Source: Clostridia bacterium (lineage in GTDB: Bacteria > Bacillota > Clostridia > Oscillospirales > Acutalibacteraceae). From it: DNA of 64,000 bases. The notes under the pieces were generated by a model. The model was not told where the DNA came from. It saw only the letters and a list, made by a program, of their open reading frames with translations, and made no database searches. The stretch spans positions 2,261 through 66,260 of the forward strand of contig JAILMJ010000002.1 of assembly GCA_024692685.1 (NCBI GenBank), given 5' to 3'. This document shows, piece by piece, positions 26,829-33,957 of the stretch; positions within the stretch are counted from its first letter, which is position 1, and each line of letters begins with the position of its first letter. The translations under genes were made by a program, and so were the position numbers.

Positions 26829-26999
26829 AATATCACTCCTCATAGTTTTTATTCAGTTTAGCAGAAATATATATAAAATTCAAGAGAAACGGGTAAACAT
26901 TTTTATCTTTCTTACGAAAAATAATTGTTTATATATATTTACTTACAGAAATCCGTTGTGCTATAATATATTTAATTTTAAAAGGGAGTACTCTGATAT

Positions 27000-27914
27000 A
27001 TGACAGTTAAAAAAGTTTCCCATTTCGGAATACAGAGAAAGATAATTGCCACCACCACTCTTCACAGTTGGCAGACAGTGCCTCATATCGGCTACAGCTA
27101 TGAACCCGACGTTTCAAAATTTGTGGATACAGTCAAGGAACTCAATGCCTCCGGCAAATTTGAGTCAAAAATTACAGTCAACACAATTATGCTGAAAGCC
27201 ATAACCGAGGGCCTGAAAGCGGCCCCCAGGCTCAATGCCCATATCAAATTCGACCCCAAGAGAGTCAAGGGAACAGTCACGGAATATGAGGATATTCATG
27301 TTTCGATGACCTGGGAACTTCCCAACAATCAGATGATGACCATCAACCTTCATGATCTGGGCAACAAATCCCTTACCGAACTCAACGATTACATTAAAGA
27401 AACAGCCGAAAAAATCGGCAACACAAATCTCGATGAGGTTATGTATTCCATCTCTATTGACGACACCCTCGGTGCTCTTAAACACGGTCATATCGGGCTT
27501 GCAATCAACAGACTCATCGGCGGCAAACTCGGTAAATATAAAGTTACTTCGCTCAAAGGTAAGGAGAAGAAAGAGTATTACAGTATTCCCGAAACCAAAC
27601 GCCTTAGCAAGGAAGACATCAGGCAGGGCACGGTATGTGTTTCCAATATCGGCTCAACGACAAGGGGCATACCCGGCAGGGTTACCCTGCTTGCCATCAT
27701 TCCTCCCCAGGTATTTGTGCTTTGTATGGGTACTATTCAGAAGATACCAATGGTTTATCAGAACGAAAACGGTGAGGATGAAATCAGAGTCGGCAGGATG
27801 CTCCCGATGTGTCTGGTATTTGACCACCGCGCAGTGGATTTTGATGAAATCGTTCCTTTCCTTAACAGGATGGAAGAAATCTTCAAGAATCCCGAAGAAA
27901 TGTATAACTGGTAA
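27000..27914 (+). CDS. Stand-alone 2-oxoacid dehydrogenase E2-like acyltransferase catalytic domain
   Basis: RKIIA...PH, APRLNA, GTVCVSNIGS, IIPPQVFVL, LVFDHRAVD; no lipoyl or subunit-binding domain. Confidence 0.8.
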   Translation: MTVKKVSHFGIQRKIIATTTLHSWQTVPHIGYSYEPDVSKFVDTVKELNASGKFESKITVNTIMLKAITEGLKAAPRLNAHIKFDPKRVKGTVTEYEDIHVSMTWELPNNQMMTINLHDLGNKSLTELNDYIKETAEKIGNTNLDEVMYSISIDDTLGALKHGHIGLAINRLIGGKLGKYKVTSLKGKEKKEYYSIPETKRLSKEDIRQGTVCVSNIGSTTRGIPGRVTLLAIIPPQVFVLCMGTIQKIPMVYQNENGEDEIRVGRMLPMCLVFDHRAVDFDEIVPFLNRMEEIFKNPEEMYNW

Positions 27915-28025
27915 AAGCAATTATTGCCTCGGCTCTCCTTAAGCGGACAGTCGGGGTAGTGTACTTAAAAGAACCGGCCGGATTGCTCGGGCATATCCGG
28001 ATTAACGAAAATGGAAGGAGAAAAA

Positions 28026-28853
28026 ATGAGTAAAAAGCGAAGAATTGTAAGCATTGTCGTTTTCGCTGTCATTTTTGCCGCGCTGCTCGTTGGAATAGTC
28101 CTGACTTCCGGTGCGTCCCCGGCTTCCGAGGAGCCGATAGGCGAGGTGATGAAGGATGCAGTCCTTCACGAAACCGGGAAGATAAATCTGCTCGGTATCA
28201 GAATCAATCCCGGTCTTGTGTCCGCATTTTCAGTATCGGGAATAATGATACTTTTTGCGTTGATTATCAGGATTTTTGTGATACCTAAGTTTAAACTGAA
28301 GCCCGGCAGATTTCAATTTCTTCTTGAAAAGGCAGTGGGACTCTTTGACGGACTTGCAAAGGAAAACAGTCCGCACAAATCACATTTTATAGGCGGGTAT
28401 ATCTTTTCTGCCGGGGCGTATATTTTTTTCAGCACTTTATTTGAACTCTTCGGTTTTCAGGCTGTTACCGTCACAGGCCGGCCTATATCTCTTCCCGCAC
28501 CGCTTTCGGATATAAACGGAGCGATTGCAATGGGTGTATTTTCCTACGGAGTGATTCTTATCGGGGGTCTGATTAATAACGGATTCAAAGGAATGTTCAA
28601 TGCGCTCAAGGATTTTTCTCTTCCGATTTCAATGAGTTTCAGGCTTTTCGGAGCTCTGCTCTCGGGCGCTCTCGTTACAGAACTCGTTTATTACTATTCT
28701 TTGACCAGCTATGTTATTCCCGTTCTGGTCGGAGTGCTGTTCACCCTTCTTCACGCAGTTATTCAGGCATATGTTCTTACAATGCTTGTTTCAATTTTTT
28801 ACGGGGAGTCTTCAGAACCTTCACGCAAAAAGAAAAGAGGAAAAAAGATATGA
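28026..28853 (+). CDS. atpB: F-type ATP synthase subunit a
   Basis: PGRFQFLLE, PAPLSDIN, SMSFRLFG (essential Arg), IQAYVLTML; first gene of the atp block. Confidence 0.88.
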   Translation: MSKKRRIVSIVVFAVIFAALLVGIVLTSGASPASEEPIGEVMKDAVLHETGKINLLGIRINPGLVSAFSVSGIMILFALIIRIFVIPKFKLKPGRFQFLLEKAVGLFDGLAKENSPHKSHFIGGYIFSAGAYIFFSTLFELFGFQAVTVTGRPISLPAPLSDINGAIAMGVFSYGVILIGGLINNGFKGMFNALKDFSLPISMSFRLFGALLSGALVTELVYYYSLTSYVIPVLVGVLFTLLHAVIQAYVLTMLVSIFYGESSEPSRKKKRGKKI

Positions 28854-29224
28854 AAAAAACATTAAGTATAGTTTTGACATTATTTGCCGTTATGCTTCTG
28901 ATTTCGGCTGTCTGCGTTCCGGCCTTTGCCGCAGGTGAAACGGCGGAGACTCTTGCTGCAGCTGAAAATGAAAACGCAGCGGAAAGCACAGCCGACAGCA
29001 CCGTAAATGTTAAAGCAAAGACCGCTGCTATCCTTGTTGCCGTTGTTGCCGGAATCGGTGCCGCGGCAATGAGTTTTGCGATAGTCAGCGCCTCAAACGG
29101 TATCTCGCGTCAGCCGGAAGCAGCCGGCAACATCAGGACCAATGTTATGCTCGGCCTTGTATTCATTGAAACGGCGATAATCTATGCCCTGATAGTTGCA
29201 ATTCTGATTATCTTCGTACTTTAA
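28850..29224 (+). CDS. atpE: F-type ATP synthase subunit c with N-terminal extension
   Basis: RQPEA loop and FIETAIIY carboxylate helix; about 50 extra N-terminal residues. Confidence 0.92.
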   Translation: MKKTLSIVLTLFAVMLLISAVCVPAFAAGETAETLAAAENENAAESTADSTVNVKAKTAAILVAVVAGIGAAAMSFAIVSASNGISRQPEAAGNIRTNVMLGLVFIETAIIYALIVAILIIFVL

Positions 29225-29239
29225 TCGGAGGAATATGAT

Positions 29240-29731
29240 ATGCCTCTAAATATAGACATACAGCAGATTCTCCTCCATATGCTTAATTTCGTGATCCTTT
29301 TTGCGGTAGGATATTTTCTTCTCTACAATCCAATAAAGAAGTTTATGGACAAGAGAGAAAAGTATTACAGCGATATGGATGAAGAAGCTGAGAAAAAACT
29401 GTCGGATTCCGAAAAACTCAGAGCCGACTATGAAGAAAAACTGAAAGAACTTAACAGTGAAACCGAGCGGATAAAGAGCGATACACTAACCGAAGCAAGG
29501 GCAAAAGCGGATGAAATGATAAAAGACGCAAAGGCGGAGGCATCGGACATTATCTCATCTGCCAGAGCACAGGGTGAGGCGGAAAAGAATGATATCATAA
29601 GATCCGCATCCGATGAAATCCGTGAACTTGCCAGGTCAACCGCAGAAAAACTTATCACGAGCGAGAATGAAGACGAATACAATAAATTTCTTAAATCTGT
29701 CGAAGAGGCAGATAACGGAGAGAATGAATAA
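29240..29731 (+). CDS. atpF: F-type ATP synthase subunit b
   Basis: [12 protein letters not shown]...[14 protein letters not shown] membrane anchor then long charged coiled coil. Confidence 0.9.
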
Positions 29732-29733
29732 TA

Positions 29734-31449
29734 ATGATTCGAAGAAAAGTTTACGCGACTCTTCTTGCTCAGAAACTGCCGGATGAAAAGCAGAAGCAGG
29801 AGATACTTGCGTTTTTGAAGAAAAAGCACGGCATAGAAGATATGGTGTGCAAGTATGACGAGACCATAACCGACGGCTTCAAAATCATCTTCGATAACAA
29901 GGTGTATGATTGGACAAAGGAGGGTTTTCTCCGCCGTTTCAGAAATACTCTTGAATCCGCTGCGGACAGCAGAGAAATCATCCCCATATTCAAACAGGCA
30001 ATGGATGATTTCGGCTCCTTTTCCGCACCCGAGGAAATCGGAACAGTCAAAACCGTAGGTGACGGAATTGCAATTATTGAAGGGCTTGAATCTGCGAAAT
30101 ACGGTGAAATTCTTGCGTTTGAAAACGGCGTCAAAGGCCAGGTTCTTGATCTTAGAGAAAAAGAAATAGGCTGCATGCTCTTCGATGACAGCGAGAAAGT
30201 TTTCCAGGGAGATACTGTCATAAGAACAGGCAAAGTGGCAGGTATACCCGTGGGTGAGAAGTTCATAGGCAGGGTTATTGATGCGCTGGGCAATCCGATT
30301 GACGGAAAAGGCGATATTGAGGCCGACGATTACAGACCGGTTGAGTCGCCTGCCCCCTCTATTGTTGACAGACAGCCCGTCAATATTCCTCTGGAAACCG
30401 GTATTCTCACCATAGATTCGATGTTCCCCATTGGCAGAGGTCAGAGAGAGCTCATTATAGGAGACAGACAGATTGGCAAAACTACCATAGCGATAGATAC
30501 AATAATTAATCAAAAGGGCAAAAATGTGATTTGTATCTATGTTGCAATAGGTCAGAAAGCTAGCTCCGTTGCGAACACGGTCGATACTCTTGAGACTTTC
30601 GGTGCCATGGATTATACGGTTGTAATTTCATCAACCGCAGGCGATCCCGCTTCCCTTCAGTATATTGCTCCGTATGCAGGATGTTCGCTCGGTGAATATT
30701 TTATGTATAAGGGCCGGGATGTCCTGATTGTTTATGACGACCTTTCGAAGCACTCCGTTGCTTACAGAAGTATCAGCTTGCTGCTTGGCAGATTTCCGGG
30801 CAGAGAAGCTTTTCCGGGCGATATATTCTATCTTCACTCCCGTCTGCTTGAAAGAGCGGCTCATCTGAGCGAGGAGTGCGGAGGCGGAAGTATGACAGCC
30901 CTTCCCATAGTTGAAACTCAGGCCGGCGATGTTTCCGCATATATTCCCACGAATGTTATATCCATAACCGATGGTCAGATTTTTCTTGAAACCGACCTGT
31001 TTTTCAGCGGGCAGAGGCCTGCTGTGAATATAGGTCTTTCGGTTTCCAGAGTCGGCGGTGACGCACAATCACCGGCAGTTAAGAAAGCGTGCGGCTCTTT
31101 CAGACTTGAACTTGCCCAGTACAGAGAGATGGCGGCATTTATGCAGTTTTCCGGTGATATTGATGATGAAGCAAAGTCCCGTCTTGATTACGGCAGAAAG
31201 CTTATGCTGACCTTGCGTCAGAATCGGCATTCACCTTTATCCGCACACAGGCAGGTTGTTATTCTGACTGTCATACTCAACGGAAAACTTAAAAACGTTG
31301 AAGACAATAATATTCATGCCTTCCTTGATTCGGTCTGCGAAAAAGCGGAGGGAAACAGAGACATCTGTTATGAGATAGACAATAATCTGGCACTCTCGGA
31401 AAAGAGTAAAGCGGCGATTCTGGAAATCGCGGATAATACGGAGTTGTGA
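29734..31449 (+). CDS. atpA: F-type ATP synthase subunit alpha with N-terminal delta-C-terminal-like domain
   Basis: [62 protein letters not shown]; about 75 extra N-terminal residues. Confidence 0.93.
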
Positions 31450-31450
31450 T

Positions 31451-33674
<2,224 letters not shown>

Positions 33675-33929: not shown

Positions 33930-33957
33930 AAAACGGAGGTCGTCAGACCTCCGTTTT
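33930..33957. terminator. Bidirectional terminator ending the atp operon and the convergent sugar-redox operon
   Basis: AAAACGGAGGTC-gtca-GACCTCCGTTTT, perfect 12-bp stem. Confidence 0.85.

Follow-up and report, generated by a model that had tools for sequence, protein, structure and literature searches.

The number of ions that an F-type ATP synthase translocates per ATP is a basic bioenergetic constant, and it was long regarded as set by the size of the c-ring alone, with one peripheral stalk and one a-subunit per enzyme. Two studies from 2025 broke the one-stalk assumption, one with an engineered fusion in the Bacillus PS3 enzyme and the other with a two-stalk enzyme of Chloroflexus. Here we describe an F-type ATP synthase operon on a 64-kb stretch of DNA from a Clostridia bacterium (positions 2,261 to 66,260 of contig JAILMJ010000002.1; referred to below as the window), in which the gene for the delta subunit, atpH, is absent and delta's C-terminal domain forms the alpha subunit's N-terminus.

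The closest described system is the "deltaΔN-alpha fused FoF1" of Bacillus PS3 (PDB 9JC1; Ueno et al., Nat Commun 2025, PMC12229609), an engineered enzyme in which delta residues 2-104 were removed and residues 105-178 were fused to the N-terminus of alpha. Its content of a and b is about doubled, with two stalks and two a-subunits on average, and cryo-electron microscopy resolved up to three b2 stalks and up to three a-subunits, with canonical contacts between the delta C-terminal domain and b. The H+/ATP ratio was 5.8 as compared to 3.0, and the proton-motive force at equilibrium was halved. The authors concluded that the delta N-terminal domain is what limits the enzyme to one stalk. The stalks of the construct, which also lacks the C-terminal domain of epsilon, are labile; many particles missed stalks, and activity was lower (PMC12229609).

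The same authors predict natural multi-stalk enzymes and list natural delta-alpha fusions from Acidaminococcus fermentans (UniProt D2RLW6) and two further entries (UniProt G4Q3K6 and A0A1I2C5T3; PMC12229609, Discussion and Supplementary Fig. 9). For A. fermentans they judged from the atp operon that the N-terminal domain is missing. In the library that was searched, theirs is the only paper to describe natural delta-alpha fusions, and a characterisation of such an enzyme was not found. The first-pass annotation of the window had stated that no characterised enzyme of this design was known, a statement that has to be withdrawn in view of the engineered PS3 fusion and the natural cases listed with it. 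The design is thus already known, having been engineered and solved and noted in a few natural genomes, and the window represents a further natural case. The Chloroflexus enzyme is a natural F-type ATP synthase with two stalks and two a-subunits, in which a short delta N-terminal domain dimerises on F1 (PMC12002316).

The delta domain at the N-terminus of alpha

The operon occupies the + strand of the window at about 28.0-33.9 kb, and its gene order, BEFAGDC, is the canonical one minus atpH. Its central part comprises the following features.

29240..29731, + strand: atpF (subunit b), 163 aa, of ordinary length; Pfam ATP-synt_B, E = 2.4e-22
29734..31449, + strand: atpA, deltaΔN-alpha fusion, 571 aa; TIGR00962, Pfam OSCP and three alpha/beta domains
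29746..29964, + strand: delta/OSCP C-terminal domain (alpha residues ~5-77), presumed b2-docking module; profiles, AlphaFold and Foldseek
29965..30012, + strand: short linker (residues 78-81) and canonical alpha N-terminal helix (residues 82-93); AlphaFold secondary structure and alignments with ordinary alpha subunits

Only two bases separate the stop codon of atpF (29729-29731) from the ATG of atpA (29734-29736), so that no delta gene fits between them. An in-frame TGA at 29725-29727 bounds the alpha reading frame on its upstream side, and hence no in-frame delta N-terminal half is concealed ahead of alpha. TIGR00962 (atpA) covers alpha residues 79-566 (694 bits, cut-off 484) and leaves about 78 N-terminal residues over. 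Scored as an isolated 89-aa fragment, this extension reached 23.9 bits with Pfam OSCP (PF00213; cut-off 22.3 bits; E = 4.9e-5), residues 14-73 aligning with profile positions 111-172 of 172, and TIGR01145 (delta) matched the same part with E = 1.7e-4.

A single-sequence phmmer search of the extension against the PDB returned noise only (dCTP deaminase and others, E >= 0.08), which made a family profile necessary. Likewise, the extension alone gave no matches in a word-indexed protein search, the domain being too divergent for shared 5-mers. The family profile was made from nine aligned homologous N-extensions and searched against PDB sequences. It matched residues 105-176 of PS3 delta with E = 4.3e-8, the delta subunits of E. 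coli, Chloroflexus, Pseudomonas, Acinetobacter and chloroplasts, the mycobacterial b-delta fusion and mitochondrial OSCPs, and every one of these delta/OSCP matches falls in the C-terminal domain.

The predicted fold agrees with this assignment. An AlphaFold2 model computed from the nine-sequence alignment has a predicted local distance difference test score (pLDDT) of about 90 over residues 10-60 and shows the order beta-alpha-beta-beta-beta-alpha (beta 7-12, helix 18-32, beta 36-41, beta 50-53, beta 56-59, helix 62-77). A short low-confidence linker leads from there to the alpha N-terminal helix at residues 82-93, and the beta-barrel begins at about residue 100. In a Foldseek comparison with the PDB the best 44 matches were all delta/OSCP chains (probability 0.96-1.00), with a template-modelling score of about 0.6 when normalised to the 95-residue query.

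A profile of the free delta subunits of relatives, run against the six-frame translations of the window, matched only alpha residues 6-76 (profile positions 98-170 of 173), and no match to the delta N-terminal domain was found anywhere in these translations. The window also contains no second alpha or beta paralogue and therefore no second rotary ATPase operon. We conclude that the N-extension of alpha is the delta C-terminal domain and that delta is absent from the operon. Several claims of the first-pass annotation are thereby borne out. It had seen no room for delta between atpF and atpA, with which the gene layout and the upstream TGA agree; it had read the first residues of alpha as following the delta/OSCP C-terminal pattern, and the residues that it quoted match the translation and are backed by profile and fold; and it had placed the usual alpha N-terminus behind them, where helix and beta-barrel are indeed predicted. 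The OSCP profile search that it had recommended exceeds the Pfam cut-off, the search for atpH or a second F- or V-type operon found neither within the 64 kb, and its notion of a capping domain replaced by covalent fusion is consistent with the lack of a delta N-terminal domain in operon and window.

There is no support for an internal translation start that would free alpha from the domain: the window has no internal start codon ahead of the alpha helix, and Met89, a residue within that helix, is not preceded by a Shine-Dalgarno box. The usual binding partner of the alpha N-terminal helix is the delta N-terminal domain. In the window (29977-30012, residues 82-93) and at homologous positions across the fusion family this helix is strongly conserved. 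Many family members share the pattern IIPL..E....W.P in this region.

Comparison with described rotary ATPases

Among PDB sequences the best match of the family profile is chain 9jc1_I of the engineered PS3 enzyme ("ATP synthase delta subunit, ATP synthase subunit alpha"; E = 4e-10). With the whole protein as query, this is also the only PDB alpha chain whose alignment reaches into the N-extension, and the two proteins are colinear and in register (query 40-530, chain 40-534; 571 versus 580 aa). Both consist of the delta C-terminal domain, a short linker and alpha from its N-terminal helix onwards, and both do without a delta N-terminal domain or a free delta. The C-terminal domain of epsilon, removed from the construct, is naturally (and coincidentally) absent in the window. 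By contrast, the window fusion is natural, has its own linker of six to ten residues in place of GGSGGS and shares only about 20% identity in the domain; its Fo part is divergent, and stoichiometry and coupling ratio have been measured only for the engineered enzyme.

With the A. fermentans type the window shares, by the published description, an operon without atpH and an alpha subunit that carries the delta C-terminal domain only. The difference lies in affiliation: A. fermentans is a member of the Negativicutes, and the window has its nearest relatives among metagenome-assembled genomes (MAGs) that carry the label Lachnospiraceae or Clostridia. Three features of the deltaΔN-alpha type are present in the window: a fused domain on alpha, no atpH or delta N-terminal domain within the 64 kb, and a complete operon with an ordinary b.

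Other described types fit less well. In Chloroflexus, too, the delta C-terminal domain is the module that docks b, and its chain 9itj_S is the second-best fold match. However, the Chloroflexus enzyme has a free delta of 157 aa and exactly two stalks, whereas the window has neither a free delta nor a delta N-terminal domain. An assignment to the Chloroflexus-type two-stalk F1Fo was rejected because a free delta with a shortened N-terminal domain was not found in the window. The mycobacterial b-delta fusion resembles the window enzyme in that delta is covalently joined to a stator neighbour, and its fold was matched (7jg5_d), but there a single copy of full-length delta resides on b, while in the window only the C-terminal domain is fused, to alpha, which is present in three copies. 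This type was also rejected: subunit b of the window (163 aa) has a Pfam match to ATP-synt_B only and none to OSCP, and its 23 bits with model NF009961 (b/delta) are far below the cut-off of 328.

N-ATPases, the alternate F1Fo enzymes with gene order atpDCQRBEFAG, likewise have no delta gene. We know of no N-ATPase with a delta domain on alpha. The order BEFAGDC and the scores with TIGR03324 (607.7, cut-off 750.5), TIGR03323 and TIGR03166, all below the respective cut-offs, speak against such an enzyme. A canonical bacterial F1Fo operon (atpIBEFHAGDC) would include a free full-length delta, and atpH was not found in the window. Finally, in V/A-type ATPases two or three EG stalks dock separately on the head and leave the axis free, and the window enzyme may work in this manner; as the stalk proteins are unrelated and V/A-type enzymes have a single a-subunit, no homology is implied.

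Related loci and the Fo part

An exhaustive profile search over 1.84 billion representatives yielded 403 proteins at E <= 1e-10. In 136 of the 150 best 50%-identity representatives the delta C-terminal domain stands at the start and runs into the alpha helix. The N-extensions include at least 69 that are dissimilar to one another. P16, G48 and W60 never vary and F49 and D59 hardly do; the cluster counts are inflated by fragments. Judged from these sequences, the fusion family is clearly large and under selection. The same architecture occurs at 42-50% identity in independent genomes.

L002 and L003: Lachnospiraceae MAGs from rumen, deltaΔN-alpha architecture
L004 and L005: Clostridia MAGs from rabbit-labelled ("Lapin") samples, deltaΔN-alpha architecture
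P0165 and L015: cluster including a Christensenellaceae-labelled MAG, deltaΔN-alpha architecture
L017 and L018: two further metagenomic contigs, deltaΔN-alpha architecture

The fused alpha subunits of these relatives have 579-595 aa and directly follow atpF in each case. All six relatives that were tested pass the Pfam OSCP cut-off, with profile positions ~98-172 only, and the available flanks of eight related fusion loci contain no other delta-like open reading frame. Names of relatives are sparse, and all are MAG labels of Clostridia type. The phylogenetic spread that the first-pass annotation had wished to see surveyed is thus considerable, as the fusion recurs across many diverged lineages of gut and rumen Clostridia.

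Two other arrangements were encountered among relatives. L006, L009, L010 and L011 possess a free delta of 167-188 aa. Full-length delta-alpha fusions of 670 aa are present in L007 (5719-7731), L008 (5725-7737) and L001 (1591-2652; P0006, P0007), whose MAG labels are uncultured Eubacterium sp. or Clostridia and whose a, c and b subunits are ordinary. Their OSCP match extends over profile positions 24-171, which means that the N-terminal domain is kept, and a conserved internal Met marks the old alpha start, without a Shine-Dalgarno box. With three complete deltas on one F1, a clash at its axis would be expected. Over the alpha core every lineage shares 61-65% identity with the window, and the branching of a neighbour-joining tree built from these cores is compatible with one origin of the fusion as well as with several. 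Matches of about 100 aa were considered as candidates for free deltaΔN proteins but give these no support, since most of the eight that were read are frameshifted or truncated gene calls. P0240, a metagenomic protein fragment (189 aa, on a JGI contig of 63.5 kb), apparently contains two tandem copies of the delta C-terminal domain plus the alpha N-terminal helix.

The remaining genes of the window operon and its presumed end are as follows.

28026..28853, + strand: atpB (Fo subunit a); reading frame opens at 28011; Pfam ATP-synt_A, E = 1.3e-19
28850..29224, + strand: atpE (Fo subunit c), 124 aa; Pfam ATP-synt_C over residues 59-120
31451..32269, + strand: atpG (gamma), 272 aa
32266..33675, + strand: atpD (beta), 469 aa
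33675..33929, + strand: atpC (epsilon), 84 aa; Pfam ATP-synt_DE_N over residues 4-79
33930..33957, no strand: 12-bp palindromic hairpin directly 3' of atpC, terminator-like

Subunits a, c, b, gamma, beta and epsilon were all recognised by Pfam or NCBIfam models, and all seven genes are intact. A GGAGG box at 28014-28020 makes the ATG at 28026, rather than 28011, the likely start of atpB. The hairpin probably marks the end of the operon.

Alignments revealed a distinct type of Fo in six of the fusion lineages, namely the window, L003, L004, L005, L015 and L018. Their c subunits are 116-127 aa long and start with a signal-peptide-like segment with a conserved cleavage-like site, (A/V)xA, behind which comes an acidic tail of about 25-30 residues (atpE of the relatives: L003 5106-5471; L004 5133-5483; L005 5100-5480; L015 931-1308; L018 1259-1642). 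In the window, the signal-peptide-like extension of atpE comprises about 55 aa and has a cleavage-like AFA|A site, and the acidic tail is likewise present. In helix 1 of c most of the glycines in the GxGxGxG motif have given way to Ala and Ser; helix 2 has the sequence FIETAIIYA. Subunit a of the six lineages starts with KKRR and a hydrophobic segment that resembles a signal or anchor, and it ends in a Lys-rich tail. Compared with canonical relatives it has a 12-residue insertion and a 13-residue deletion. The window subunit a retains the essential Arg (FRLFG). Subunit b begins with PLNIDxQQILLH in all six. By contrast, relatives with a free delta or a full-length fusion have an ordinary c of 70-76 aa. 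The link between fusion and long c is a tendency and not a rule because L017 combines a deltaΔN-alpha fusion with an ordinary Fo and a canonical c of 70 aa.

Replacement of Gly by Ala in helix 1 of c is associated with larger rings in alkaliphilic Bacillus. It is tempting to speculate that the Ala-rich helix 1 is relevant to the housing of several a-subunits. More generally, we tentatively consider the co-varying divergent Fo, with what would be a cleavable c signal peptide and an acidic external tail, and with its Ala-rich helix 1 and signal-like a, as a possible adaptation to the fusion architecture, an idea about which we have some doubt. If it were true, the ring could be larger, and insertion of Fo could depend on Sec.

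The window epsilon (84 aa) consists of the beta-sandwich domain only and lacks the C-terminal helical (inhibitory) domain. Epsilon has 136-139 aa in fusion-bearing relatives. The short form is specific to the window, and so is the short gamma (272 aa versus 294-314 aa in relatives). Gamma has several short deletions in its central region, near aligned residues 57-72 and 190-210.

Directly upstream of atpB, window positions 27000-27914 encode a 304-aa protein that consists of the catalytic domain of a 2-oxoacid dehydrogenase acyltransferase only (PF00198, E = 2e-35; no lipoyl domain). A promoter-like site was noted at 26938-26967. A similar acyltransferase gene, coding for 280 aa, is located near the atp operon of the Christensenellaceae-type locus L015 (8713-9555). 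An Rfam scan of the window gave no match.

What is new here, relative to the cases listed in 2025, is that the fusion is common and diverse in metagenomes of gut and rumen Clostridia, that it is usually accompanied by a divergent Fo, and that some relatives possess full-length delta-alpha fusions.

Peripheral stalks of the fused enzyme

We propose that only the part encoding the C-terminal domain, the clamp of the b2 C-termini, is left of the delta gene, and that this clamp would be made as the N-terminus of alpha. The fused domain is very probably the docking site for the C-termini of b2. Since it is present on every alpha, each F1 head would carry three covalent stalk-docking domains. The delta N-terminal domain, whose normal place is the pseudo-threefold axis and whose presence limits the enzyme to one stalk, would be absent, and the stator would be held to F1 via the fused domain and not via the contact between delta N-terminal domain and alpha helix. 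With three equivalent sites, the enzyme could recruit between one and three b2 stalks. Each stalk with its own a-subunit would then multiply the number of ions per turn of the c-ring (N_c x N_a) and reduce the ion-motive force that ATP synthesis requires. The first-pass annotation had suggested that an F1 with three docking domains might hold more than a single stalk; this suggestion is well founded, as the engineered PS3 equivalent (PDB 9JC1) does so, which provides a direct experimental precedent. By analogy with that enzyme, more than one stalk and a-subunit may be present in vivo, a prospect to which we give slightly less than even weight. The explanation that we favour, with moderate confidence, is a natural deltaΔN-alpha F-type ATP synthase that works with multiple stalks.

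Several points weigh against this explanation. Stoichiometry is not readable from sequence. The alpha helix at residues 82-93 stays conserved even though its usual partner, the delta N-terminal domain, is gone. Stalks of the engineered enzyme are labile and its activity is lower, so the natural enzyme need not use all three sites. The full-length delta-alpha fusions of L007, L008 and L001 keep the N-terminal domain, which makes an origin of the fusion in assembly or tethering possible and implies that a fusion need not entail several stalks. Lastly, the window is 64 kb of a genome, elsewhere in which a stand-alone gene for atpH or for the delta N-terminal domain could be located. The fusion might thus be a mere tether in an enzyme with a single stalk: one domain would bind the b2-a stator and two would be idle, assembly would be simplified and the ion/ATP ratio would be c/3. 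We regard this as a serious alternative, if a rather unlikely one. It would fit the presence of one atpB and one atpF in ordinary operon order, the symmetry-breaking N-terminal domain that the related full-length fusions retain, and the many engineered particles without all stalks, with their lower activity (PMC12229609). Yet in PS3 the removal of the N-terminal domain together with the fusion was enough, without any further alteration, to give two stalks and two a-subunits on average, and up to three (PMC12229609), and no feature was seen in the window operon that would restrict occupancy to one site.

Two further explanations were considered. A separate delta encoded outside the window might cap the stator and leave the N-extension of alpha as a redundant or repurposed remnant. 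Only 64 kb were inspected, and ectopic atp genes occur in some bacteria (PMC4154653); still, we think this very improbable. Neither the window nor the flanks of the eight related fusion loci contain a delta-like open reading frame, the N-extension keeps its delta C-terminal domain signature across very diverged lineages, which argues for a working domain, and three fused domains plus a free delta would compete for b2. Moreover, for A. fermentans the N-terminal domain is stated to be missing, on the basis of the atp operon (PMC12229609). Alternatively, the fusion could be a chance product of a deletion or misassembly in which atpH lost its 5' half and what was left of it became attached to atpA. 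Unitigs of two sequencing runs (X3 and X4) do break at 29706-29718, at the 3' end of atpF, and gamma and epsilon of the window are unusually short. The break probably reflects strain variation at the atpF C-terminus. In run X4 there is a 21-base loose end at this position that does not match the window, and the depth rises abruptly from 8 to 41. The stretch 29200-30400 is present in gut and bovine-gut metagenome assemblies of at least 14 studies, one contig from an independent run spans 29596-29909 without an indel, and no indel in the N-extension was seen in any run examined; of the raw reads of run X22 none matched the stretch, with about 6% of the run read. All seven genes are intact, and a few exact or near-exact pieces of atpE, atpG and atpD in bovine-gut metatranscriptome assemblies weakly suggest that the operon is expressed. 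Given the intact junction in the independent contig and the same architecture in many diverged assemblies, from Lachnospiraceae, other Clostridia and the Christensenellaceae-labelled cluster to hundreds of metagenomic proteins, an artefact or decaying operon is effectively excluded, and the assembly error that the first-pass annotation had named as a possible explanation of the fusion does not apply.

The favoured deltaΔN-alpha reading would place in an uncultured bacterium of the gut or bovine gut, whose nearest relatives are Clostridia MAGs, a natural operon of the kind that was predicted from the engineered enzyme. The design is not the curiosity of one genus; it is shared by a large and diverse family in anaerobic gut Clostridia, mostly together with a distinct Fo. 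Members of this family are candidates for the first structural and thermodynamic study of a natural multi-stalk F-ATP synthase. A low threshold of ion-motive force would plausibly suit a fermentative anaerobe of gut or rumen, and the finding bears on how fermenters may harvest small ion gradients, for example those from Rnf- or decarboxylase-type pumps.

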